Sequence record: JX128257
Strand: one strand, 5' to 3'
Source of the DNA: Escherichia phage ECML-4
DNA length: 64,000 nt
This document shows, piece by piece, positions 2,500 to 45,528 of this stretch. Within the stretch, counting starts at the first letter, position 1. Each line of letters opens with the position of its first letter. The notes under the pieces were generated by a model, which was not told where the DNA came from, did no database searches, and saw nothing but the letters and a program-made list of their open reading frames with translations. The translations under genes were made by a program, and so were the position numbers.

Positions 2500-3339
2500 A
2501 TGCAATCTGCGTCTAAAGTTGTATCCATGAAGCCAGCGAAGACAAAATCTGCTCGTAAGAAAGACACCATCCAGAAGGAAGAAGACTGGATGAAGTTTTC
2601 CAAAGGCGATTTCAAAATTGCTCCGTTCAATGGCCTCTCAGAAAATCAGAACCTCGCATATCAATCCGCACTCAATGAACATCTCACTATCGCTATCGGT
2701 CCGGCAGGTACAGGCAAATCCTATTGTGGTGCGTCCGCTGCTGCCAAGCATCTGATTGACAAAACCATCAACAAGATTATCATCACGCGTTCTCCTTTAC
2801 CGACTGGAACCACAGCGGGGTTCCGGCCTGGTGACACATATGAAAAGCTGATGCCTTATTTGATGCCGCTCATACAGACATTCAAAAAGGTTCTCAAAAC
2901 AGATACGGGTTCCGACGGTTTCTTCAACTATCTGTGGGAGAAACGCATCATAGAAATTCAAGACCTTGAAACTGTGAAGGGGATGACTTTCGATGATTGT
3001 TTCCTGATTATCGAAGAGGCGCAGGAATGCGATATGGAGCAACTGAAAAACTTATTGACTCGTGCTTCAGATTCTTCGTACATCTTCGTGAATGGAGATA
3101 TCAAACAGTCTAACAAGCGACTGCGTGATAGTGCGTTACAGACGTATGTGGATTCCTTTAAAGACTTCAACAACAAGCTGGAAACAGGTTCTTTGCAAAT
3201 TGACGGTGTAGAAATCGGAGATGAATATCCTGAGTGGGTTCAGCCATTCAGCATCATCGAATTCGATAAGTCTGATCGTAATGGTCGCGGTAACTTCACC
3301 CGCCTGATGTTAGAAATTAACGACCTGTACAACATTTAA
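2500..3339 (+). CDS. phoH: PhoH-like ATPase
   Basis: Walker A GPAGTGKS and PhoH-family layout; ATG at 2500 with AGGAAGG SD (track start 2464 is GTG). Confidence 0.85.
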   Translation: MQSASKVVSMKPAKTKSARKKDTIQKEEDWMKFSKGDFKIAPFNGLSENQNLAYQSALNEHLTIAIGPAGTGKSYCGASAAAKHLIDKTINKIIITRSPLPTGTTAGFRPGDTYEKLMPYLMPLIQTFKKVLKTDTGSDGFFNYLWEKRIIEIQDLETVKGMTFDDCFLIIEEAQECDMEQLKNLLTRASDSSYIFVNGDIKQSNKRLRDSALQTYVDSFKDFNNKLETGSLQIDGVEIGDEYPEWVQPFSIIEFDKSDRNGRGNFTRLMLEINDLYNI

Positions 3340-3423
3340 ATACCACACGAACTTCCCCGTCGCCTTCAATCCATGGAGGCGACGTATAATAACAGCCTGC
3401 ATTAACACAAACCGAGGATCGCT

Positions 3424-5706
3424 ATGATTAACATCATAAAGCGGGACGGATCTTCTGTCCCCTTTGACATTGAAAAACTCCACACTGTTCTTGAACGTGC
3501 CTGTGAAGGATTAGAAGGAGTTTCGGTGTCTGAGGTGGAAGCAGCATCGAAGATTCAGTTCACAGACAATATGAAAACCGAACGCATTCAGGATATTATC
3601 ATCCAAGCGGCGGCTACATTGATTTCTGTAGAAAAACCCAACTACCAATATGTTGCTGCCCGTCTGAAATCGTATGACCTGCGCAAAGTCGTCTATGGGC
3701 GATACAAGCCACCTCATTTGCTTGATATATTCGCTAAAAACATCAAGCAGGGCGTTTATGATCGTGAATTCCTCGAACTCTATACGAAAGAAGAATTTGA
3801 AGAACTGAACACGGTCATCAATCACAAACGCGACAAGAATTTTACTTGGGCGGCTATGGGCCAGCTCACGCAAAAATATCTTTTGCGCGATCGCTCAGCA
3901 GACAGCAAAGTATATTACGAAACGCCTCAAGTCATGTATATGGCGATCGCGATGGCCCTGTTCTCTGCATGGGATAAAGAAACTCGCCTGACGATGGTGA
4001 AGAAATTTTATGAATACGCCAGTACAGGTAAATTCAGTCTTCCAACACCCATCATGTCCGGCGTTCGTACCCCAACCCGCCAATTCAGTTCTTGTGTTCT
4101 TATCAAAACCGGTGACACTTTGGACTCAATCAATGCTACAGCCAAAAGTATTGTTGATTATGTATCCAAACGCGCTGGGATCGGATTTGATGTCGGAGCA
4201 ATTCGTGGCATCGGTAGCCCTATCCGAAAAGGTGAAATGGTGCACACAGGTCTGGTTCCTTTCATAAAATATCTGACTGGGGCATTAAAGTCTTGCTCTC
4301 AAGGCGGTATTCGTGGCGGATCAGCAACTTGCTATATCCCTATCTGGCATTATCAATTTGATGATGTTGTGGTCCTGAAGAACAACCGTGGTCTTGAAGA
4401 GAACCGTGAACGCCGTATCGACTATGGTATTCAGATCAACCGCGTCATGTTCGAACGTCTGGTGAACAAACAACCCCTGTATTTGTTCGATCCGAAAGAC
4501 AACCGCGATATGTACGAAGCGTTTTTCGCAGATGTCGATAAGTTCCGTACCCTGTACGACAACATGGTCAAAGCTGCTGATGCTGGTTTGGTTCGTGCCA
4601 AGAAGATGAATGCGGAAGAAGTATTCCAGATGTTGTTGGATCAGCGTTCAGATACAGGCCGCATCTACATCGCGTTTGTCGACCACATGAACCAGTACAG
4701 CCCATTCAATCTAGACACAATCTATAGTTCTAATCTGTGTCTGGAGATTGCGCTTCCTACTCGTGAATTCCAACAGTACGACGATGAAGAAGGTCGGATC
4801 GCTCTGTGTACTTTGGCCTCTTTTAACCTGACGGCGTTTGAAGACCCGACAGAAATGGAAGACGTTGCATATGTCTTGGTTTCGGCTTTGGATATGCTGC
4901 TGGAATACCAAGATTATCCAGCACGTCAAGCCCGTCTGGCTGTAGAAGAATATCGTCCTCTGGGTATCGGTGTCGTCAACGTCGCGCATTTCTTCGCCAA
5001 GAACTTCACGGGGTATGGATCTCCTGTTGGGTTAGAACTCCTGGACAAGTGGATGGCGCACCTGCATTTCTATCTGGTAAAGGCTTCGAATCGTCTGGCC
5101 ATGAAGTTTGGGGCATGTAAGAAGGAAACCATTCATCGTTCTGGTAAGATAACAGCCGACCTTCAACCGTTGCCGCTGGATATCCTCCCCAATGGTAAAA
5201 AGCCGGAAGGTATGGCATACGGCCTTGACTGGGACGGTTTGAAAGACTCTCTGCGTTGCCATGGTATCCGCAATGCTACTCTCTTGGCGATAGCACCAAC
5301 TGAAAGCTCCTCTCAGGTGCTGAACGCCACGAATGGTATAGAGCCACCCAAAGGCCTCATCAGTATCAAAGGCAGCAAGGATGGCGTCTACAAGCAGATC
5401 GTTCCGGACGTTGAAACCCTTGGTCCTCTATATGACCTGAAATGGAATCTGTCTTGTATCGACTATTTGAAAACAGCGGCGGTCGCCCAGCGTTGGGTTG
5501 ACCAATCCATCAGCGTTAATACACATTATGATCCAGAGAAATTCCCAGACGGGAAGATCCCGCGCTCTCTCATGATGCAGGATATTCTGTCTTTCTACAT
5601 GTGGGGTGGTAAAACTCTGTATTACAACACCAACAAAGACTCTAAGGAAGATGAAGAGTTGAAACAAATTGAAGATCCGAATCACTGTGACACCTGTGTT
5701 GTCTGA
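3424..5706 (+). CDS. nrdA: ribonucleotide reductase class Ia large subunit
   Basis: 760 aa; N-terminal ATP-cone (MINIIKRDGSSVPFDIEKL) and alpha-chain length and architecture; GAGGA SD. Confidence 0.95.
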   Translation: MINIIKRDGSSVPFDIEKLHTVLERACEGLEGVSVSEVEAASKIQFTDNMKTERIQDIIIQAAATLISVEKPNYQYVAARLKSYDLRKVVYGRYKPPHLLDIFAKNIKQGVYDREFLELYTKEEFEELNTVINHKRDKNFTWAAMGQLTQKYLLRDRSADSKVYYETPQVMYMAIAMALFSAWDKETRLTMVKKFYEYASTGKFSLPTPIMSGVRTPTRQFSSCVLIKTGDTLDSINATAKSIVDYVSKRAGIGFDVGAIRGIGSPIRKGEMVHTGLVPFIKYLTGALKSCSQGGIRGGSATCYIPIWHYQFDDVVVLKNNRGLEENRERRIDYGIQINRVMFERLVNKQPLYLFDPKDNRDMYEAFFADVDKFRTLYDNMVKAADAGLVRAKKMNAEEVFQMLLDQRSDTGRIYIAFVDHMNQYSPFNLDTIYSSNLCLEIALPTREFQQYDDEEGRIALCTLASFNLTAFEDPTEMEDVAYVLVSALDMLLEYQDYPARQARLAVEEYRPLGIGVVNVAHFFAKNFTGYGSPVGLELLDKWMAHLHFYLVKASNRLAMKFGACKKETIHRSGKITADLQPLPLDILPNGKKPEGMAYGLDWDGLKDSLRCHGIRNATLLAIAPTESSSQVLNATNGIEPPKGLISIKGSKDGVYKQIVPDVETLGPLYDLKWNLSCIDYLKTAAVAQRWVDQSISVNTHYDPEKFPDGKIPRSLMMQDILSFYMWGGKTLYYNTNKDSKEDEELKQIEDPNHCDTCVV

Positions 5707-37108: not shown

Positions 37109-37729
37109 ATGGCTATGTATTTGCAGGGGAAGTATGTTCCCGTAAATCCCAAGAAATATAAAGGCGATGTGAACAAAATAGTTTTTCGTTCATCACTAGA
37201 ACTTGTCGCCTTCAAATTCTGTGATATGAATCCTGCTATTGTTTATTGGTCATCCGAAGAAACCGTAATCCCATATATCTCTCCAGTTGATGGTCGCGCC
37301 CACCGCTATTTTATGGATTTGAAAGTATGGACTCGTCGACAAGACTCTGAAGAGTTACAGATAACTCTTATTGAAATAAAACCCAAAGACCAAATTAAAG
37401 AACCCCGAAAAACAAAAACGATGAAGGAATCAACGTTCAATAATTCGATGCGTACATGGCTGGTGAACCAAGCGAAGTGGACCGCCACCAAAGAGCATTG
37501 TGCTAAAGTTGGTTGGAAATTCATTATTTGGACGGAAGAGCATTTGGTACCAGGAGAAGATCCCGAAGTTAAAAAACAATTTGCGCTACGTTCTAAGAAA
37601 AAGCGCGAGGTCGAAATGGAAGATCGACGCCGCGCTCAAAGAATTAATGCGTTGAAAGAGCAGATGAAAAAGGAAACTTCCAACAAACAAACGACAAAAC
37701 CTGAGGATGACGGTTTGTTGTTACCCTGA
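37109..37729 (+). CDS. hypothetical protein with Lys-rich C-terminus (possible head-completion gp4-like protein)
   Basis: AGGA SD; divergent from the baseplate hub operon as T4 gene 4 is; the call is low-confidence inference. Confidence 0.4.
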   Translation: MAMYLQGKYVPVNPKKYKGDVNKIVFRSSLELVAFKFCDMNPAIVYWSSEETVIPYISPVDGRAHRYFMDLKVWTRRQDSEELQITLIEIKPKDQIKEPRKTKTMKESTFNNSMRTWLVNQAKWTATKEHCAKVGWKFIIWTEEHLVPGEDPEVKKQFALRSKKKREVEMEDRRRAQRINALKEQMKKETSNKQTTKPEDDGLLLP

Positions 37730-37939
37730 TTTCCTTGGATGTCCAGGGGCAAAACAAGTTTGTTTGTCCCTGCATATCACCCATCCTTCCGAACGGGCTT
37801 GTCTAGCACAATCAGCCCAAGTTTCACCAGCATAAGACTTCATACCGCATCTTGGGTGGTGCTCTTGCCAAGCCCAATCACAAGATTTGCATTCCACGCA
37901 TTCACAATACAAATCTAATGTGTATCCTGCGGTAATCAT
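37721..37939 (-). CDS. hypothetical small Cys-rich protein
   Basis: 72 aa ORF with multiple Cys residues (CECVECKSC ... CG). Confidence 0.4.
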   Translation of the reverse strand: MITAGYTLDLYCECVECKSCDWAWQEHHPRCGMKSYAGETWADCARQARSEGWVICRDKQTCFAPGHPRKSG

Positions 37940-38347
37940 TTAATCCGCCAGGCGTTCGTAAATTTTTTGACGGAACTCATTCCCTTTTGCACAACCTGTG
38001 GCCAGCAAACGAGTACCGCCTGTCCCGATGACACTGATCGTTGAAAATCTGAGAATACGGCCTGTAATGGACTGATCCACTTTGATGGTCTCAACTTTAC
38101 CCAGGCGAAGTTCATCAGCATCACGGCGGATAAACCCTCGTTTTACGATAACCCGTTTGTTGGTGACTGCGAATTCCGTGGTCATCACATTCAAGATAGT
38201 TGGGATCAGGAATAACAAACTGAAACCAAATGTTGGAATAATCGTTAAAGCGACGAGAACATAAATCCAGAATCCACTCCACCAAGTCGGACGAGTGAAT
38301 GCAACCACATATTCATTTTCGCTCAGCATACGGTCGACGTAACGCAT
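37940..38347 (-). CDS. membrane protein with bacterial PH (bPH_2-like) domain
   Basis: Two N-terminal TM helices followed by a small soluble domain typical of YdbT/bPH_2 proteins. Confidence 0.5.
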   Translation of the reverse strand: MRYVDRMLSENEYVVAFTRPTWWSGFWIYVLVALTIIPTFGFSLLFLIPTILNVMTTEFAVTNKRVIVKRGFIRRDADELRLGKVETIKVDQSITGRILRFSTISVIGTGGTRLLATGCAKGNEFRQKIYERLAD

Positions 38348-38348
38348 T

Positions 38349-38870
38349 TTAATTCCTTACTTTGTCAGGATTAGATAAGATTTGTTCGTATCCGACTTCT
38401 CCTTGATAGTCGAAAACATGCTGAAGAATCGCCATATCTTCTACCATCCGATAAACTTCAATTCCAGCGTTCATCAATTTTTTGATTCCATCCATAATAC
38501 GATATGGCTCACGATAATATACTTTATCGATTTTACCGCTATCTATTATCTTTTGAGTGCAATTAGGGCAAGGACTATGTGTCACAAACATAACCAACCC
38601 TGTGAAATCATCTGCATTTTCGGGGATACGCATTAGAGCATTTTCCTCCGCATGAACGACACACGGGTTTGTAACAATTTGCCCGTGTTGTTCCATCTCA
38701 CAAACATTCGGCATGCCAGGAGGCGTTCCGTTCCATCCTATAGCCACAGGCTGATCAGTTTCAGGGTTTACAATAACACAACCGACTTGCAGACGCCGAG
38801 CATAACTGGTTACACCATATGCTGCAGCTGATCGCATATGAGCAAACATCATACGTGGTTTGATAGCCAT
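38349..38870 (-). CDS. cd: dCMP deaminase
   Basis: Zinc-binding HAEENAL and PCPNC motifs of the cytidine/deoxycytidylate deaminase family. Confidence 0.85.
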   Translation of the reverse strand: MAIKPRMMFAHMRSAAAYGVTSYARRLQVGCVIVNPETDQPVAIGWNGTPPGMPNVCEMEQHGQIVTNPCVVHAEENALMRIPENADDFTGLVMFVTHSPCPNCTQKIIDSGKIDKVYYREPYRIMDGIKKLMNAGIEVYRMVEDMAILQHVFDYQGEVGYEQILSNPDKVRN

Positions 38871-39274
38871 TATTCACCTCTCAGAAGACGAGCGAAGCGT
38901 TCAACAATGCGATTGCGCGGCTTCTCGGGAACGATGTCTTCTACCGTAATGGTCAGTGTGTAGTTTGTAGAAAAATCGCAATCGGACTTTGTGATGATTT
39001 TCCGTTCACCAGGCAGCGGATACATCGTTAAAGCCCTATCGACGGAATCTAGAGAAGAACCGACCAAGTCCACCACCCTTTGGTGCCCGAACGATAATGG
39101 ACCTACGACATCCTTTTCAAAAATTTCAATCACGTCGGTGACTAACACACCCAATGCAAGTCTTAGTCCAAGGTTCTGATTTTTATCCCCTAGTGTGTAC
39201 ACAAACTGCCGACGCCACAACTCTTTCCGGTCTTCAGAACGGACGAGAGAATAATTCAAATGGTATTGTTTCAT
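38870..39274 (-). CDS. hypothetical protein
   Basis: ORF overlapping the next start. Confidence 0.45.
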   Translation of the reverse strand: MKQYHLNYSLVRSEDRKELWRRQFVYTLGDKNQNLGLRLALGVLVTDVIEIFEKDVVGPLSFGHQRVVDLVGSSLDSVDRALTMYPLPGERKIITKSDCDFSTNYTLTITVEDIVPEKPRNRIVERFARLLRGE

Positions 39275-39603
39275 TTCACCAACACCTTTTCCAGGAAGAA
39301 GATCATGTCATCCTGGTCGGCACGGCCAAAGATCTGACCGAGGGACACCATGGAATGAACCTCTTTGACAATCAGGTCTTTGCCTGTTGCACCGCTGTTG
39401 TCCAATTCGAGAATTGTAGACATGCGCTCAACCATATGAGGTGGATGATTGATATAACGTTGAAGATACTTTTCACGCAACGCAATTTTTTCGATAAGAT
39501 CTGACATTTCTGCATTCTCTTCTGAATACAGACGTTCTTTAGATTTCAGTTCTTCGAGGCGTTCGTACATTTCTTTTAATGAAATCATGTTTGTCTCTCC
39601 CAA
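39271..39603 (-). CDS. hypothetical protein
   Basis: ORF with GGGAGAG SD. Confidence 0.45.
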   Translation of the reverse strand: MGETNMISLKEMYERLEELKSKERLYSEENAEMSDLIEKIALREKYLQRYINHPPHMVERMSTILELDNSGATGKDLIVKEVHSMVSLGQIFGRADQDDMIFFLEKVLVK

Positions 39604-39650
39604 TAAATTAAGGGGAAGTATACCTTCCCCTTCTTCAATAAAATAAATTA

Positions 39651-40001
39651 TTATTCAGTACAAGCTCGACCAAGTTCAGTCAGGCGGTAGAATGTTACTT
39701 CTGATTTCGGCCAATGCTTATACTCTTCAGAGTCATCATGAACCATAGTGAACGCAGGTTCGATCAGACCTTTAGATAATAATGATTGCCCTGAACGTGT
39801 ATCCCACGGATCACCTTTTACAGAACGAAACCCACCAGCAATCGGAGGGGCATGGAATGTCCATACTGTCTTGCCCTTTTCATTCGTCCAAGACTTCGGA
39901 TTGAAATACCAATGACAAAGGCGTCGATCATCATGGGTTTCAAAATTCAGCATTCCCAGAAGGACACAGAGTTGATGTCCTGTGATTCTTGGCTTTTTCA
40001 T
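39651..40001 (-). CDS. hypothetical protein
   Basis: ORF. Confidence 0.45.
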   Translation of the reverse strand: MKKPRITGHQLCVLLGMLNFETHDDRRLCHWYFNPKSWTNEKGKTVWTFHAPPIAGGFRSVKGDPWDTRSGQSLLSKGLIEPAFTMVHDDSEEYKHWPKSEVTFYRLTELGRACTE

Positions 40002-40330
40002 AAGATCCCCAAGTCAGTAAGGTAACGATAAGACAGGACTACAGATAGAAATCCAATTAACATCCAAGACGACAGGATAGGCTTGCAATTTAGCGTAGTC
40101 TTTCCATTGGGTATGTTGGGACTTCCAGTAATAACAACCGAATCCGTTTTAGCTCTCAACGTCATGACAGAACCCATGAGAATGATTGGGCGCACATAAT
40201 GTCCGTCGCGATTGCGCTTTACAATACATGGTGAAGAAAATCGCAGGAACGGATCACCGCTTTTATAACCGAACAACTCGACCTTTTCTATTTCTTCGGG
40301 AACCTTTTGTCCAGGAAAGAATATTCTCAT
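39998..40330 (-). CDS. hypothetical protein with C-terminal hydrophobic segment
   Basis: ORF with start/stop overlaps. Confidence 0.45.
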
Positions 40331-40887
40331 AATATGATTCCTAAATTTGTGTATAACAATTCAGCTAGAGTAACAGGTCGTTTGAATTGTTCCCAGCTGC
40401 AGTTCAGATATTCACGTTCTTCGCGGATCTTTTCGTGAAGATGTCCGTGGATATTATACGCCCAACGATCTAATTGATACGGAACGTGTGTAGTCAGAAT
40501 CCGACCGACAGAAGTATCCCGCTCATACATGGCACCAAAGGATGTAATCCAGCCCTCCAGATACAACCGCATTAACATTTTGAAACTGTCGTGGTTGCCC
40601 TGTGCCACCCTGATGATAAAGTTCGGACGCCATTCATCGGGAACGGGGCGGCGCTTGAACTCATCAATGTTCCGCTTGGCTCCTTCGCGCATCAGGCGTA
40701 TGAACCCCTCAGCGCCGATAAAGCAGATGTCCCCCGCCAGTTCAAGGACATCCCGAGATTTCAGCCCTTGGAATATGCTGTCTATAACCGCAGCATCATG
40801 GGATTCTTGAGTATCGAATCCACGAGGTTTAAAGACTTTTTTATGCCCGAGGTGAGTGTCACCAAGGTACTTGACAATTCCTGCCAT
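40327..40887 (-). CDS. calcineurin-like metallophosphoesterase
   Basis: GDTHLGH, GNHD and GHLH metal-binding motifs. Confidence 0.7.
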
Positions 40888-41229
40888 TTATGGCCTCCTC
40901 ATCCATTCTAATATTGGGATGCCTACAAACCCTTTATGCCAGCGGTGGGGTTTATGGCCTCTGTTGTGATCCAACAAACAAGTATCTGGAGGAACACTGA
41001 AATGGATACCATCGATATCGTAATAATTCCCGTCGATAAGAGTATACACATGCCCTTCAATCTGGCTGTAATGAATCTCCGCTTGCGGATAAACGTGTTT
41101 GAGAACCAGGGCGACTTGATAGCACTTCCCGTTCTTTCCCACATACTCAACATCCACCTGTTGTGGGAAAATGTCCTTGATCAGATTTATCAATATGGTG
41201 ATATCATTCACTACAACAGATGGTTTCAT
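40888..41229 (-). CDS. hypothetical protein
   Basis: ORF with GGTGAG SD. Confidence 0.45.
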   Translation of the reverse strand: MKPSVVVNDITILINLIKDIFPQQVDVEYVGKNGKCYQVALVLKHVYPQAEIHYSQIEGHVYTLIDGNYYDIDGIHFSVPPDTCLLDHNRGHKPHRWHKGFVGIPILEWMRRP

Positions 41230-41242
41230 CTTCTCATCTCAC

Positions 41243-41905
41243 CTATGATAACTCATAGCGATGGCGGGTACATGCAGGGCAATTACAGTCTTTTCTCAAA
41301 ATTGGCATTTCACACCACGTCATCAAACCATGTATTGGAGACATATGATGATAAAACCATGATTTTTTGAGACTAATCAAAGGATATAAAATTTCAATTG
41401 GCCTTTCCCCGTCTCTTGTCATCATATTGTATCCTTCGATGACCTTATTGAAAGCTGGGATCCAGTGGATCGCGTCGTCCCCGTTGACATATGCCAATAT
41501 GTATGTGGGAGGCAAACTCCGGCCTTTAAATTGTGTGTTTAATAACCATATCGGGGCTTGTGCTAAACACGCACGAAACCCGCCGTCCGGCACGTGAATG
41601 CTACTAATCGGTTCTTGGTGATGAGTCCAACGATGCATAAGAAGCGGAGCATTCTTGTTGATCCAATTATAAATTTTATTTCGCGCCCAATTCTCACGTT
41701 TGGATTTGAAATTATTATTTTCAAGATGGCAATACACAGTATGAACCGAATAACCTTTCGATAATAACCAAACCAACATGTATGTGCTATCCACGCCGCC
41801 TGACCAAAACAATGTCACTTCTTGATTATTTTCCGGCAAAGGTGCATCCCCTTGAAGGACACGGTACACAAATTCACAATCAGATACAGAGACAGCGATT
41901 TCCAT
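41243..41905 (-). CDS. PP-loop ATP pyrophosphatase, QueC-like (putative)
   Basis: SGGVDS PP-loop near the N-terminus and a C-terminal C-x9-C-x-C-x2-C cluster; TAATG coupling to the upstream ORF. Confidence 0.6.
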   Translation of the reverse strand: MEIAVSVSDCEFVYRVLQGDAPLPENNQEVTLFWSGGVDSTYMLVWLLSKGYSVHTVYCHLENNNFKSKRENWARNKIYNWINKNAPLLMHRWTHHQEPISSIHVPDGGFRACLAQAPIWLLNTQFKGRSLPPTYILAYVNGDDAIHWIPAFNKVIEGYNMMTRDGERPIEILYPLISLKKSWFYHHMSPIHGLMTWCEMPILRKDCNCPACTRHRYELS

Positions 41906-42201
41906 TAAATTATTCCCCTCAAAGAGTCATTGATTCTACGCAATTCATTTTCCACCTTTATCTTCATATTTTTGTCGTCGTTCACGAAAATCATTTTATC
42001 TAAATCTTCGCCATTAATCTTTGTATAAAAATAAATGTCATGCTCAAAGAAAATCGTTTTTCCAACAGAACGCATGGCAAAGAATGTCGCAATAGTTCTC
42101 GATAATGGCTTGAACTTAATAGCATTAAAACGCAAAGCCTGATATAGGGGTTTTAATGTTCCCAATCTGATACAGTGCTGAATGATTTCTTGTTCTTTCA
42201 T
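41905..42201 (-). CDS. hypothetical protein
   Basis: ORF translationally coupled to the PP-loop gene. Confidence 0.45.
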   Translation of the reverse strand: MKEQEIIQHCIRLGTLKPLYQALRFNAIKFKPLSRTIATFFAMRSVGKTIFFEHDIYFYTKINGEDLDKMIFVNDDKNMKIKVENELRRINDSLRGII

Positions 42202-42277
42202 CCCATTGTCCGAGTGACGGGGTTTCCGATGAATCCCCCTATGTTTGTTGGTTAAACAATGATACTTTAGTCAAGAT

Positions 42278-42302
42278 ATAGAAAAGCCCCTTTCGGGGCT
42301 TA
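42278..42302 (-). terminator. rho-independent terminator (minus strand)
   Basis: AAGCCCC-GAAA-GGGGCTT followed by TTTTCTATATC on the minus strand. Confidence 0.7.
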
Positions 42303-42590
42303 TTCTTCATCAGATTTGAAAAGGTTCCATCGGCCTATTCCATACCATTCTCCAATATTGTTGGAGTAGCGGGTTGTCCTAACTCCACCGATTTCGTACC
42401 CCCATTTGAAGAAACTCCATCTTTCCTTTAGGGTGGGTGGTTTATTTCCGGTTGCCAAGGAGCAAGCTGTAAGCCAACGTGCGATACTAATGGCTTGAAA
42501 AATTGGATGAATAAACGAATAATACACAACACCCAGAGTTATAATGACGAAGACGCATGTCGTAATCAACCCGACAATTTCAAAGAACAT
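42300..42590 (-). CDS. hypothetical membrane protein
   Basis: N-terminal TM helix. Confidence 0.45.
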   Translation of the reverse strand: MFFEIVGLITTCVFVIITLGVVYYSFIHPIFQAISIARWLTACSLATGNKPPTLKERWSFFKWGYEIGGVRTTRYSNNIGEWYGIGRWNLFKSDEE

Positions 42591-42664
42591 TTATAACCCC
42601 CAATATTGAACACACACTATGATGAACGTTGTGATCGTGAATACCCAGGAGAAGATAGAAAGTT

Positions 42665-43297
42665 TCATTCTTCTACCTTTAGCCCCATCAGGTCTTCCAT
42701 GGTCTTCTGAATACGAAGCCAATCAAGAGCAGCGTCATAACGAGGATCGTGGTATACCATGCCTTCCAGTTCCCAAGCCTTGATACCAGCATAACGATCC
42801 TGTTGCCCAACGCCTTTCAGCCAGCTCACGATGTCGAAGGTGTGATGGTAATCCCAAGGCTCGTTGGAGTCCTGCTTACATGTCACCTCAATGATATGTT
42901 GGGCCTTGCGGAGATCAAACAAGTTTCGGTCACACCAGTCAACCGAGCGCGGGTCTATCCCAAGACGATGACAACCTTTGCGGATTTCATCGGCCAGCTG
43001 GAAGATAGAGGTGTCCTGATCGGTCGGGTACAGGCTGACAGCGCGAGCAGCATCACACGGGTTTCGCTTACCCGTACCTAACCACCATTCAACAGTCCCC
43101 TGATCCTTGACGCGGCCAAGTTTAGTCTGCTCTTTGACATCCAACTTTATGAACGTCGTTCGCTCTTCAACGAGTTGCTGAAGAGTGTAGCGTTTGGTCA
43201 GGTCGGCGATAGTATGCGCCCAGGATAACATAATAGCATCGTCCCAGCGCCCCAGAGTCTCGCTATCGGCGACAGCCAAGAAATTAGATTTATACAT
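42665..43297 (-). CDS. DEDD-family 3'-5' exonuclease (DexA-like, putative)
   Basis: N-terminal ADSETLG (Exo I DxE) and C-terminal YHDPRYDA (H-x4-D) motifs. Confidence 0.55.
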   Translation of the reverse strand: MYKSNFLAVADSETLGRWDDAIMLSWAHTIADLTKRYTLQQLVEERTTFIKLDVKEQTKLGRVKDQGTVEWWLGTGKRNPCDAARAVSLYPTDQDTSIFQLADEIRKGCHRLGIDPRSVDWCDRNLFDLRKAQHIIEVTCKQDSNEPWDYHHTFDIVSWLKGVGQQDRYAGIKAWELEGMVYHDPRYDAALDWLRIQKTMEDLMGLKVEE

Positions 43298-43634
43298 CGG
43301 TTTCCCCCGCTTTCTCTAAAAGAAGTTTCAAAGGATATGTCCCACAAGCGGTGGCATATTCAACTCTGAAATATGAATTATCGTTCATGGCGAAATTGCG
43401 ATGAGGAAAATATTCACCATCATCAAAACCACCCATCCCTCCACCGACGCGATATTGTTTCAATTCTACTTCGCCACCGTAACGCAGTTGGGCGTAGAGA
43501 CCGATAGGAGCGCGAACATAATGCTCCAACCACACCCAATTACCGTCATGTAGACGGGTGGGTAAAAACGCAAACCGTACCTTGGGATGAAGAACGGCTT
43601 TAGCCAACATTTCTTCCGTCACTTCAGATTTCAT
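43290..43634 (-). CDS. hypothetical protein
   Basis: ORF. Confidence 0.45.
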   Translation of the reverse strand: MKSEVTEEMLAKAVLHPKVRFAFLPTRLHDGNWVWLEHYVRAPIGLYAQLRYGGEVELKQYRVGGGMGGFDDGEYFPHRNFAMNDNSYFRVEYATACGTYPLKLLLEKAGETDV

Positions 43635-44236
43635 CCGATGCTTTCCTCTTCGATGACGTCTTCTTCATTAGGAACAACCGAGATCCCAAAGTCGATCATT
43701 TGAGAGAGTTCTTGTAAATCCTTTTCGAATCCATCCCCTTCCCGAATATAGAATACTGGGACCACGCGACGGCGAGTATCTTCAAAGATGGTTTCGGCGA
43801 TTTTGTTAATCTGGCCCACCACATGTGTGAGATTCAAGCCACCAATACCACAACCGATGGCGGGCAAACCGACATAGACAGTTTCATCAGCTTTGGCTTC
43901 AACGATATCATGAATTTGTTCAAACATGATCTGGACTGAGCTAATGATAGATGGCATGCGAGCATTGGGACCTGGGTAAAATTGAGTATACAAATTGAAT
44001 CCCCAGACACCAGTGTCATGATCAAACGCATAGGACATGTTTCCCAAGCGCTGTTCCGGACCACGTTCATCTAATTGGTCGGCGCGGTAAATCTCTGGGA
44101 AATTCAATCGAACGTGATTGGCGATACCCGCGCCCATTACAGACCAACAATTTGCGCCGTGAGCAAAGGCATTGATAAGATTGAAACTCGTGGCGGCTTT
44201 TAATAAATCGCCATTTGTGATAATATAAGTGGTCAT
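43631..44236 (-). CDS. Macro-domain protein (putative ADP-ribose binding / ADP-ribosyl hydrolase)
   Basis: ITNGDLL ... NAFAHGANCWSVMGAGIAN and LPAIGCGIGGL motifs matching the Macro fold; ATG at 44236 with GGAG SD. Confidence 0.65.
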   Translation of the reverse strand: MTTYIITNGDLLKAATSFNLINAFAHGANCWSVMGAGIANHVRLNFPEIYRADQLDERGPEQRLGNMSYAFDHDTGVWGFNLYTQFYPGPNARMPSIISSVQIMFEQIHDIVEAKADETVYVGLPAIGCGIGGLNLTHVVGQINKIAETIFEDTRRRVVPVFYIREGDGFEKDLQELSQMIDFGISVVPNEEDVIEEESIG

Positions 44237-44469
44237 GCGTAACGTCTCCATTGTATAATTTCGTTGTCGACACAACTGACCTGAATGATACACATATTCT
44301 GGCGATGGTCGGTGAGTGTCATAATAAAACTGTCTGGTTGTGACATGACACGATTAACAGATATCCCGCGCGACATCAAACGAAAGCAAATTTCTTGATA
44401 CAAACGTTGCATATATCCTGAAACAGAAGCCGATTCATATGCGCGTTCAAATTCGTATAATTCGTTCAT
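44233..44469 (-). CDS. hypothetical protein
   Basis: ORF. Confidence 0.4.
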   Translation of the reverse strand: MNELYEFERAYESASVSGYMQRLYQEICFRLMSRGISVNRVMSQPDSFIMTLTDHRQNMCIIQVSCVDNEIIQWRRYA

Positions 44470-44690
44470 TTATTAAGACCATTAATAGCATTTTCAGAGA
44501 TGTATTCGACGAATTGATTGTCAGCCGCCATTTTTAAAAGTTCAAACAATTCAGTTCCAACTGTACTCCCAAACATTCCTTCCAATACTCCTTGGACATC
44601 TTCATCTATTTCTTCGATGATGAGTCCATAAGATTTCAGGCGTCGCGAAATAGCACGGAACTGGGCAATATCTCCAATTTCATTTGCCAT
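44466..44690 (-). CDS. hypothetical protein
   Basis: ORF. Confidence 0.4.
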   Translation of the reverse strand: MANEIGDIAQFRAISRRLKSYGLIIEEIDEDVQGVLEGMFGSTVGTELFELLKMAADNQFVEYISENAINGLNK

Positions 44691-44738
44691 GGTATTATCT
44701 CAATATGGGGTTAGGCGGCAATTATACCGCCATTTTCT

Positions 44739-45152
44739 TCAATAGAGGTCTTCGGAAAAGAGTTCACGGAAAGGAGTGTTCTTCAAACGAACTTGATTGG
44801 TTTGTCCAGCTTCACGGGCTACAATAGCCGCCTCTTCCCTAGACATCCATTGCCCATAGTTATCGATAAACCCTTGTTCACGCGTGCGGGTGTTTTCGAT
44901 AACACCTGCTTCCTTCAATCGTTTCAGTTGCGCATTCATTAATTTGTCGTGGTGACGGGCGCTTACAACGATGACATCACCATATCTGTTGGCAGCGGCC
45001 ACTACGCGGCGGTCAAATTTAGTTGGGTCTGGTATATCCCGAGCATATAGGGCGATATGGGTGTCGTCAACATCCCCTTTGACTTCAGAATATAACTGGC
45101 CACCATTAGGAGATCCAGTGGGTAAAGAACGAAAATAACCGAGTAATTTCAT
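44739..45152 (-). CDS. hypothetical protein
   Basis: ORF. Confidence 0.45.
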   Translation of the reverse strand: MKLLGYFRSLPTGSPNGGQLYSEVKGDVDDTHIALYARDIPDPTKFDRRVVAAANRYGDVIVVSARHHDKLMNAQLKRLKEAGVIENTRTREQGFIDNYGQWMSREEAAIVAREAGQTNQVRLKNTPFRELFSEDLY

Positions 45153-45207
45153 AATCTAGTCTATCCATATTTCAGGTTCGGGGATATCAACCATCTCCAT
45201 TGACATA

Positions 45208-45519
45208 TTACGCCTCCACTTCTTCATCAGGAAAATAAGGGCGTAAATCCCCAATTAATTTAGGGAAGAGGGCAAACCCGAACAGATTAAAAGAACGCAT
45301 GGTCCCAACCATACCAACATCATCCAATTCGGTAACGTCAGAAAGGGCACACAACGGTATCCACACGTCTTCTTGTCCTTCGTAATTTACGAAGGCAACT
45401 TCCTCTTTGATGAATCGAGGACACAGAATATCAAACAGCCAATAGACGTATGCCAGTAATGAGAGACTGCGGAAATATACAAACATGGTGAACCCCTCAC
45501 AGGTTTGGAGGGAATTCAC
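45208..45519 (-). CDS. hypothetical protein
   Basis: ORF. Confidence 0.4.
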   Translation of the reverse strand: MNSLQTCEGFTMFVYFRSLSLLAYVYWLFDILCPRFIKEEVAFVNYEGQEDVWIPLCALSDVTELDDVGMVGTMRSFNLFGFALFPKLIGDLRPYFPDEEVEA

Positions 45520-45528
45520 CCTCCAGAT

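Follow-up and report, generated by a model that had tools for sequence, protein, structure and literature searches.

A conserved block of non-structural genes in Kuttervirus ECML-4 with a probable AdfM-type macrodomain enzyme

The gene tk.4 of phage T4 was the sole T4 gene depleted on hosts carrying DarTG2, a clean deletion confirmed the sensitivity, and the gene was named adfM (bioRxiv 10.1101/2025.11.20.689424). The chimallivirus macrodomain AdfM (PhiKZ gp104) likewise counters DarTG2 (PMC13309987). The Streptomyces macrodomain protein SCO6735 cleaves thymidine-linked ADP-ribose from DNA and is inactivated by the mutations Q85A and N27S, with Q85 sitting at the position of K80 in DarG and K84 in TARG1 (PMC9411070). 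Canonical QueC enzymes are defined by the motifs YxQxHxxE, VPxRN and YPDC, which contact 7-carboxy-7-deazaguanine (CDG) (PMC13329287). In ViI-type phages, which belong to the hydroxymethyluracil (hmU) phages, a phage dCMP deaminase feeds deoxyuridine monophosphate (dUMP) to a dUMP hydroxymethylase and the DNA is first made with 5-hydroxymethyl-2'-deoxyuridine (5-hmdU) (PMC8989533). We compared with these systems a block of 19 minus-strand genes (37721-45486) of Escherichia phage ECML-4 (JX128257), lying in a window of 64,000 nucleotides (nt), which is the whole stretch of DNA that was analysed. The block is likely to be a conserved mosaic of independent non-structural genes, one of which, encoding a macrodomain protein, probably specifies a counter-defence enzyme, and not one system.

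Conservation of the block and its T4 counterparts

Positions 37721-45519 were searched by megablast against 50,697 phage records. The search returned 205 matching records, of which 159 covered the block to at least 80%. The top match was Escherichia phage 241 with 100% coverage and 99.4% identity, and Salmonella phage ViI/Vi01 and its close kin matched at 95% coverage and 99.3-99.4% identity. By these matches the source genome is a Kuttervirus (ViI-like, Ackermannviridae). In annotated relatives the block is flanked by the topoisomerase II medium-subunit gene and by the convergent gene for head-completion protein gp4, with baseplate genes past gp4. The records of relatives already carry the labels 'QueC-like queuosine biosynthesis', 'exonuclease', 'phosphatase', 'phosphoesterase', 'dCMP deaminase' and 'membrane-flanked domain', and in some genomes also 'ADP-ribose binding protein'. 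The region is ordinary and largely annotated already in more than 200 public genomes.

Gene content and order were compared with a local tblastn matrix across four Ackermannviridae lineages, namely Kuttervirus, Yersinia phage CAU_YEP3, Klebsiella phage UPM 2146 (Taipeivirus) and Serratia phage 2050H1 (Miltonvirus). All four showed the same order: topoisomerase II large subunit, topoisomerase II medium subunit, small open reading frames (ORFs), Arn.3-like, small ORFs, macrodomain, DexA, small ORFs, QueC-like, phosphoesterase, small ORFs, dCMP deaminase (Cd), bPH protein and gp4. Eight genes were found in all four lineages (o92 and the genes for the Arn.3-like protein, the macrodomain protein, DexA, the QueC-like protein, the phosphoesterase, Cd and the bPH protein), and another eight in two or three of them (o72, o105, o116, o96, o114, DUF7234, o74 and YunG-like). 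The DUF7618 gene, o98 and o134 gave no tblastn match in the Yersinia, Klebsiella and Serratia relatives, and o98 was also present in one related metagenomic contig (L012) at 72% identity.

Presence and absence varied at two slots only, o134 and Vi01_025. The o134 gene occurred in only 58 phage records and fell into two allele classes, at 99% identity or above, or at about 37-42%. Vi01_025 (149 amino acids, aa), found in 37 records, lies between the phosphoesterase and YunG-like genes in ViI and phage 241 and is missing from the window. The first-pass annotation of this DNA, made from the letters alone, had taken the block for an accessory island and proposed a comparison of synteny across related phages; that comparison went against it. 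With only two variable slots, an order kept in four lineages and the coverage given above, a hypervariable accessory island was ruled out.

Synonymous divergence (dS) from two diverged Kuttervirus sequences (L010 and L013) ranged from about 0 (cd, o134, o105) up to about 1.9 (DexA). It was about 0-0.3 for o72 through o105 (37.7-39.6 kb) and 0.6-1.9 for YunG-like through o92. The mosaic of dS along the block implies that recombination has shuffled segments, and at the level of sequence it indicates that a recent recombination event between Kuttervirus lineages moved the cd-o134-o105 segment. Of all block genes o96 evolves fastest, with 67% aa identity to L010 and L013 against 91-100% for its neighbours, and a ratio of nonsynonymous to synonymous substitution rates (dN/dS) of 0.12-0.13.

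For each ORF a hidden Markov model (HMM) was made from its Ackermannviridae homologues and run against the ORFs in all six frames of T4 (positions 1-78000 and 122000-168903). Exactly four T4 homologues were found, Cd (1.5e-19), DexA (2e-8), Tk.4 (1e-19) and Arn.3 (1.2e-21). On the T4 map arn.3 adjoins motA-52 and dexA lies near gene 39, and the block therefore corresponds in position, and partly in content, to the non-essential early regions near the T4 topoisomerase genes. Like the T4 regions 39-goF-cef-motB-dexA-dda, arn-arn.3-motA-52 and cd, the block packs small genes of one direction tightly beside topoisomerase II genes, with stops that overlap starts. It differs from them in that 15 of its 19 genes have no detectable homologue in the searched T4 regions, in that the four shared genes are dispersed over four regions in T4, and in the lack of MotA/AsiA-type regulators in the block. 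Promoter and terminator scans of the block gave results at chance level, and we found no Kuttervirus transcriptome paper in the literature.

The macrodomain protein and its relation to Tk.4/AdfM

The macrodomain protein is, by sequence, a new member of the AdfM family. As a single sequence it matched the Mycobacterium tuberculosis DarG macrodomain 5m3i (4e-5). A profile of 34 homologues searched against the PDB matched DarG (5m3i, 3.3e-14; 5m31, 2.2e-11), TARG1 (1.2e-10), BT1257, and SCO6735 (1.3e-9), and the same profile also matched Poa1p (6lfu, 6lfq) at 3e-8 to 3e-7. The NCBIfam model antitoxin_DarG (1.2e-9, below the full-length cut-off) and the PADLOC DarG model (1.6e-10) were both matched over their macrodomain part only. 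The protein thus belongs by its matches to the TARG1/DarG/SCO6735/Poa1p class. The family was found by tblastn in 2,738 phage records, T4 tk.4 among them. BLASTP against T4 Tk.4 gave 8e-19 with 33% identity over 130 aa, and hhalign scored the pair at 99.9% (E=4e-33) over 150 aligned columns, which span the whole of Tk.4 and hold all motifs in common.

Residues N29, Q85, G37, G128 and G130 and the motifs HGANC..MGAGIA, NLYTQ and P.IGCGIGG were invariant in the 34 homologues. N29, the Asn of HGANC, aligned with the conserved active-site Asn that is N27 in SCO6735 (PMC9411070). Gln85 aligned with the catalytic Lys of DarG (K80) and TARG1 (K84), so that the catalytic Lys itself is lacking; the same Gln-for-Lys substitution is found in SCO6735 (PMC9411070) and in T4 Tk.4. 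Alignments to DarG and TARG1, read together with the SCO6735 study (PMC9411070), showed that the protein carries the SCO6735-type Asn/Gln pair and the glycine-rich ADP-ribose loops. It therefore resembles SCO6735 and Bacteroides BT1257 in its ALC1-like class, and SCO6735 (N27, Q85) in its Asn and Gln.

Because the protein is a full-length homologue of Tk.4/AdfM with the Asn/Gln site of SCO6735, it is probably a thymidine-linked DNA ADP-ribosyl glycohydrolase that counters DarT2, the homology being established and the activity predicted. Since deletion of tk.4/adfM sensitises T4 to DarTG2, this is the one gene of the block with real support for an anti-defence role. In single-stranded phage DNA the enzyme would most likely bind thymidine (or 5-hmdU) that carries ADP-ribose and would hydrolyse the N-glycosidic ADP-ribose link made by host DarT2, through water-mediated chemistry positioned by Gln and Asn as in SCO6735. 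Removal of the ADP-ribose would restore a replicable template. The Kuttervirus and T4 proteins are both stand-alone macrodomains of the DarG/TARG1 class encoded among non-structural genes, and they have AHG(A/C)NC..MG(A/S)G(I/V)A, NLYTQ..PGPN and P.IG.GIG in common. They differ in gene context, which is DexA in Kuttervirus and tk/vs in T4, and in the DNA that they would act on, which in Kuttervirus carries 5-hmdU or 5-(2-aminoethoxy)methyl-2'-deoxyuridine (5-NeOmdU) and not plain T.

We also considered the protein as the DarG antitoxin of a toxin-antitoxin pair. DarG has the ALC1-like macrodomain class in common with it, and DarG macrodomains were its top PDB matches. However, the match covers positions 3-136 of the 338 of the DarG model, the acidic tail is unrelated, and the neighbouring genes are DUF7234 and o114; DarG has Lys80 where Gln stands here, and it has a C-terminal DarT-binding domain. 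As the protein has no DarT-binding domain and the block no adjacent darT, it is an orphan enzyme and not an antitoxin, and the DarG candidate was rejected.

In another view, which we regard as very improbable, the block serves housekeeping only, with the macrodomain protein as a Poa1p-like ADP-ribose-1''-phosphate phosphatase clearing by-products of RNA repair and the phosphoesterase as a 2',3'-cyclic phosphodiesterase or 3'-phosphatase. The PHROG family of the macrodomain is named 'phosphatase' and its profile does match Poa1p (6lfu, 6lfq), but DarG, TARG1 and SCO6735 outscore Poa1p. Similarly, 'A1pp phosphatase' was for long the annotation of tk.4 in T4, but genetics gives this orthologue an anti-DarTG2 phenotype (bioRxiv 10.1101/2025.11.20.689424). 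Cd and DexA are metabolic, as this view would have it; RNA ligase and Tpt1 genes were not seen in the block, though no search was aimed at them.

The family-wide conservation of the macrodomain hints that modification at C5 does not protect N3, and the block raises the question of whether DarT2 ADP-ribosylates 5-hmdU or hypermodified thymidine. If an AdfM-type enzyme is present, it would explain and predict the resistance of Kuttervirus to DarTG2-bearing hosts. Salmonella and E. coli O157 are targets of biocontrol and therapy with Kuttervirus phages (ViI, CBA120, Det7 and relatives).

The QueC-like enzyme and the block as a whole

The QueC-like protein of Kuttervirus ECML-4 has been described as a singleton of another ATP-pyrophosphatase subfamily (Hutinet 2019, PMC6884629). 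It keeps the PP-loop, with WSGGVDST invariant in the family, and has four C-terminal Cys with altered spacing (C198-x8-C207-x-C209-x2-C212 versus the canonical C(x)8CxxCxxC), the first of them not shared by P0020, the remotest Ackermannviridae homologue. Pfam (QueC, 3.4e-5) and NCBIfam matched over the PP-loop region only, as did the PADLOC QueC model (residues 26-81, 3.2e-6). In an exhaustive profile search, representative clusters numbered 1,435 at E<=1e-3 and, with the threshold at E<=1e-10, 640; most were about 200 aa and matched over their full length, and PF06508 was matched by 39 of 40 sampled family members. The family profile aligned end to end with Bacillus subtilis QueC 3bl5 (2e-9) and Cap9 9nto (2e-8). 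The AlphaFold (AF2) model, with a predicted local distance difference test score (pLDDT) of 82 and a predicted template modelling score (pTM) of 0.82, was nearest to Cap9 by Foldseek (template modelling scores 0.54/0.64), then to TtuA, NcsA and TilS, which are PP-loop enzymes that modify tRNA, and then to QueC.

In the alignment to 3bl5, the CDG motifs YxQxHxxE, VPxRN and YPDC were replaced by Y.E..NN..K..RE, LSQAP and GY.xNDDA. Among the 19 block genes we found no queD, queE, folE or dpdA, no CD-NTase or Cap10 and no QatA/B/D partner; the rest of the window was not scanned for queD, queE, folE and dpdA. The missing substrate motifs and the lack of queuosine-pathway linkage in the block ruled out a canonical QueC. 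A protein-deazaguanylating enzyme of the Cap9/QatC type was also rejected, with the partner genes absent from the block and the CDG motifs replaced, though Cap9 is the top structural neighbour. The block enzyme is like QueC, Cap9 and QatC in its SGGxDS PP-loop, overall fold and length of about 220 aa, and its four C-terminal Cys, though spaced otherwise, may form a Zn-type motif like theirs. It differs in being phage-encoded, with relatives that often lie among replication genes and not beside genes of defence.

The neighbours of QueC-like genes in 65 distant viral contigs included an SNF2-type helicase at 41 loci, a family-B DNA polymerase (PolB) at 11, DnaB/gp41-like helicases at 9, UvsX-like recombinases at 7 and an RNase H/flap-nuclease-type protein at 2. 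We tentatively suggest an ATP pyrophosphatase working in the context of DNA replication or of nucleotides, where it would adenylate a substrate other than CDG at a carboxyl or carbonyl group. It is conceivable, if doubtful, that the family (at least 640 clusters at 50% identity) consists of uncharacterised enzymes that carry out an undescribed ATP-dependent modification tied to phage DNA replication. Candidates under such a replication-linked reading may be conjugation to a protein N-terminus, on the model of Cap9/QatC, or a new modification of nucleic-acid bases, the Kuttervirus version being stand-alone and directed at some target of the phage or the host.

At the distant loci L039-L079, a protein of about 120 aa (at about 3640-4000 in most loci) is translationally coupled upstream of the QueC-like gene, with the SNF2 helicase upstream and PolB downstream. 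This protein family had no PHROG match, and its N-terminus reads M-[G/A]-x-x-Y-x-W-x-x-N-P-[F/V]-[R/Q]-D from residue 1. The Gly/Ala N-terminus recalls the N-terminal glycine of QatB, the proposed target of QatC (PMC13329287), and so a partner of this kind fits the N-terminus conjugation candidate.

Closer to the block, the QueC-like gene could form a small module with o98 and with the YunG-like gene or the phosphoesterase gene, conjugating a nucleobase-like carboxylate to a protein N-terminus as Cap9/QatC or modifying nucleic acid. In favour of this, the gene has a TAATG overlap with o98 and a 13-nt gap to YunG-like, the upstream ORF ends within 3 nt of its start or overlaps it in all four Ackermannviridae lineages, the upstream 120-aa protein of the large distant lineage has the conserved N-terminus M-[G/A]-xxYxW, and Cap9 is the top structural neighbour. 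Against it, the upstream ORFs in Ackermannviridae belong to three unrelated families with different N-termini, Taipeivirus and Miltonvirus lack YunG-like, the block was found to hold neither a TGT/Cap10-like nor a QatA/B/D partner, and the CDG-binding motifs are absent. We consider such a module rather unlikely.

The QueC-like protein matched 200 phage records, and their listed organism names included no Dickeya phage, which hints that the gene may not be universal in Ackermannviridae. The comparison re-flags a widespread QueC-family phage enzyme already singled out in 2019.

The first-pass annotation had read the whole block as typical of anti-defence or host-takeover functions. This reading stands for one gene, the macrodomain gene with its AdfM homology, and not for Cd and DexA, which belong to DNA metabolism, nor for the other genes, which matched no anti-defence family. 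The annotation had added that the combination matches no single named system, and this agrees with our comparison. In its full form, a dedicated island in which the macrodomain protein, QueC-like enzyme, phosphoesterase and DexA would reverse or degrade immune signals and modifications, the idea appears improbable to us. The two hypervariable slots and the mosaic dS are typical of arms-race loci, but eight genes are family-wide and syntenic, and the T4 homologues of Cd and DexA are ordinary proteins of DNA metabolism. Members of the QueC family serve in the Qat and type IV CBASS (cyclic-oligonucleotide-based antiphage signalling system) defence systems (PMC13329287), but the block enzyme lacks the CDG-binding motifs and genes for an SNF2 helicase, DnaB and PolB lie beside its relatives. 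The fold of the Arn.3-like protein shows up again, weakly, in 'large polyvalent protein associated' domains; the macrodomain aside, however, no ORF matched an anti-defence family in Pfam, PHROGs, NCBIfam or PADLOC.

We thus prefer to read the block as a mosaic of independent genes with one probable counter-defence enzyme, and several points weigh against this. The macrodomain protein, at about 33% identity to Tk.4 and with an additional acidic tail some 40 residues long, could have another specificity. T is replaced by 5-hmdU in replicating Kuttervirus DNA (PMC8989533), which bears on the action of DarT2 there. Recognisable replication neighbours were found in only 6 of 17 QueC-like lineages (50% identity clusters), with one large lineage dominating. 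Pfam Metallophos gave no match to the phosphoesterase even at E<=5, leaving motifs and the PHROG name as the basis of that call. The eleven unassigned ORFs may include hidden anti-defence functions, and the 'early' status of the block is taken only from its orientation and the T4 synteny. The likeliest places for new counter-defence genes are the o134 and Vi01_025 slots, the Arn.3-like gene and the fast-evolving o96.

Gene structure and the remaining products

The 19 co-directional ORFs make 95.5% of the bases of 37721-45486 coding, and the GC skew is negative through the block, which fits minus-strand coding. Neighbouring genes overlap by 4 nt (ATGA) at seven junctions, by 8 nt at one and by 1 nt (TAATG) at two. 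All 19 ORFs matched a PHROG family (E 1e-26 to 1e-78), and dN/dS in the codon comparison with L010 and L013 was 0.01-0.21 for each ORF with enough substitutions; the ORFs are therefore real protein-coding genes and not chance ORFs. The starts were corrected to ATG 45486 (not GTG 45519) for the last ORF, ATG 44236 for the macrodomain gene and ATG 39588 for o105. Phage 241 and ViI are annotated with the start at ATG 45486, and 45519 belongs to a GTG-extended form. The coordinates of all features are listed in Table 1.

The first-pass annotation had counted about 19 packed minus-strand genes coupled through ATGA and TAATG overlaps between 37721 and 45519, and the genes and overlaps were as it described, although its end at 45519 gave way to the annotated start at 45486. 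The products that it had named were all recovered: a macrodomain protein in the matches to the DarG/TARG1 class, an orphan QueC-like PP-loop protein in the Pfam match and in profile matches to QueC and Cap9, a metallophosphoesterase in five invariant metal-binding motifs and the PHROG name 'phosphoesterase' with Pfam Metallophos silent, DexA in the matches to 8kel and T4 dexA, a bPH membrane protein in the bPH_2 match and a hydrophobic hairpin, and a dCMP deaminase in its HAE and PCxxC motifs and the T4 Cd match.

Table 1. Features of the block and their coordinates in the window (Cd, dCMP deaminase; TM, transmembrane).
Feature	Coordinates	Strand	Description
o92	45208..45486	-	small acidic protein, 15 D+E, 6 K+R; phrog_2241 6e-38; all four lineages; dN/dS 0.04
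Arn.3-like, 137 aa	44739..45152	-	T4 Arn.3 homologue; conserved AAN, RH.D, QGF.D, FSEDLY
o74	44466..44690	-	small acidic; phrog_5924 1e-50; in Yersinia and Klebsiella relatives; dN/dS 0.03
DUF7234 protein, 78 aa	44233..44469	-	PF23881 1.2e-38; dN/dS 0.08
AdfM-like orphan macrodomain, 201 aa	43631..44236	-	ALC1/TARG1/DarG class; Asn29/Gln85; acidic C-terminal tail of about 40 residues
o114	43290..43634	-	phrog_5613 1.7e-70; dN/dS 0.04
DexA-type 3'-5' DNA exonuclease, 210 aa	42665..43297	-	PDB 8kel 1.6e-5; phrog_255
candidate mini-ORF MKLSIFSWVFTITTFIIVCVQYWGL, 25 codons	42591..42668	-	hydrophobic; read from sequence; not established as a gene
o96 small membrane protein	42300..42590	-	TM residues 1-31 (hydropathy); phrog_2531
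terminator-like G+C-rich hairpin and T-run	42284..42301	-	directly 3' of o96; consensus match only
o98	41905..42201	-	phrog_9302 3e-67; stop overlaps QueC-like start by 1 nt; dN/dS 0.01
singleton QueC-family PP-loop ATP pyrophosphatase, 220 aa	41243..41905	-	SGGVDS; C198-x8-C207-x-C209-x2-C212; Pfam QueC 3.4e-5
phage YunG-like, 113 aa	40888..41229	-	PF24591 3.8e-44; Kuttervirus and Yersinia phage only
binuclear metallophosphoesterase, 186 aa	40327..40887	-	invariant metal motifs; phrog_547 1.4e-42
DUF7618 protein, 110 aa	39998..40330	-	PF24594 5e-55; Kuttervirus only
o116	39651..40001	-	phrog_4677; in Yersinia and Klebsiella relatives
terminator-like hairpin	39610..39632	-	between o116 and o105
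o105	39271..39588	-	phrog_4059; ATG 39588 is the phage 241 annotated start
o134, hypervariable-slot occupant, 134 aa	38870..39274	-	phrog_13393; absent from ViI and other genera
dCMP deaminase, T4 Cd type, 173 aa	38349..38870	-	PF00383 1.4e-17; phrog_174 5.5e-64; T4 cd HMM 1.5e-19
bPH_2 'membrane-flanked domain' protein, 135 aa	37940..38347	-	PF03703 1.2e-12; phrog_3707 4e-74; hydrophobic residues 24-55; all four lineages
o72 Cys-rich small protein	37721..37939	-	phrog_926 2e-26; 3' end overlaps convergent head-completion gene end by 9 nt; dN/dS 0.05

The translation of Cd contains VHAEENAL and SPCPNCT, and it matched PF00383 with 63.9 bits against a cut-off of 25, as a deaminase of the T4 Cd type. 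It is present across the family and fits a housekeeping supply of dUMP for 5-hmdU DNA. Cd would make dUMP for the phage dUMP hydroxymethylase, and the DNA would then carry 5-hmdU, later hypermodified to 5-NeOmdU. The block is like the 5-hmdU pathway of SPO1, PhiW-14 and ViI in that a phage dCMP deaminase supplies dUMP, and it differs in that the hydroxymethylase, the 5-hmdU DNA kinases (gp67, gp243), the serine transferase (gp247) and the pyridoxal phosphate (PLP) decarboxylase (gp226) lie outside it. The label 'anti-phage dCTP deaminase' was rejected for Cd, with partial matches over the deaminase core only and far below the cut-off. The dCMP deaminase of Serratia phage 2050H1 (L084:10042-10977) is annotated at 311 aa versus 173 aa here, which suggests an extra fused domain in the Miltonvirus protein.

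DexA aligned over its full length (residues 9-207) with the 227-aa exodeoxyribonuclease 8kel, and the DxE and HD...D motifs were conserved. It showed 26% identity to T4 dexA over the full length (tblastn 4e-8, HMM 2e-8) and 72-93% identity across genera, and it would act as a 3'-5' DNA exonuclease.

The phosphoesterase motifs D10-x-H12, G52-D53, G97-N98-H99-D100, H134 and G148-H149-x-H151 were invariant in four genera. Homologues were found in 696 phage records, including T5-like phages, and weak matches were obtained to NCBIfam PdeM (2e-4, far below the cut-off) and to aq_1665 of Aquifex in the PDB (0.018). The hmU phages require dTMPase and dTTPase activities (PMC8989533), which makes a role in the nucleotide pool plausible; the enzyme may act on nucleotides and is a candidate dTMPase/dTTPase. 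The phosphoesterase and the small ORFs gave no match to a known anti-defence family in the four collections named above, and the small ORFs besides the bPH_2 protein and o96 matched nothing informative. The remainder of the mosaic would consist of the Arn.3-like protein, the bPH membrane protein and about eleven small ORFs, with the o134 and Vi01_025 slots swapped among close relatives. PF26092 is a precomputed Pfam label on all Arn.3-like homologues; it was not reported by our Pfam scan.

A 43-aa TTG ORF at 42591-42722 is unlikely as called, and an ATG mini-ORF of 25 codons, MKLSIFSWVFTITTFIIVCVQYWGL, is possible inside it. The mini-ORF lies between DexA and o96, the purine-rich AAAGGTAGAAGA stands directly upstream of its ATG, and the start codon of o96 follows right after its stop. 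ViI and phage 241 have an identical copy; in the Yersinia and Klebsiella relatives DexA abuts o96 and the mini-ORF is absent.

In Yersinia phage CAU_YEP3, two HNH homing-endonuclease genes (L082:602-1432 and 3333-3905) flank the topoisomerase II large-subunit gene; both are absent at the same place in the window and in ViI. Two short G+C-rich minus-strand hairpins in and just beside the block have no strong T-run, GGAGGG-TGAATT-CCCTCC (45487-45528) after the stop of the topoisomerase II medium-subunit gene and GGCGG-TATAATT-GCCGCC (44691-44738) after the stop of the Arn.3-like gene, and they may be elements of RNA processing or stability rather than terminators.

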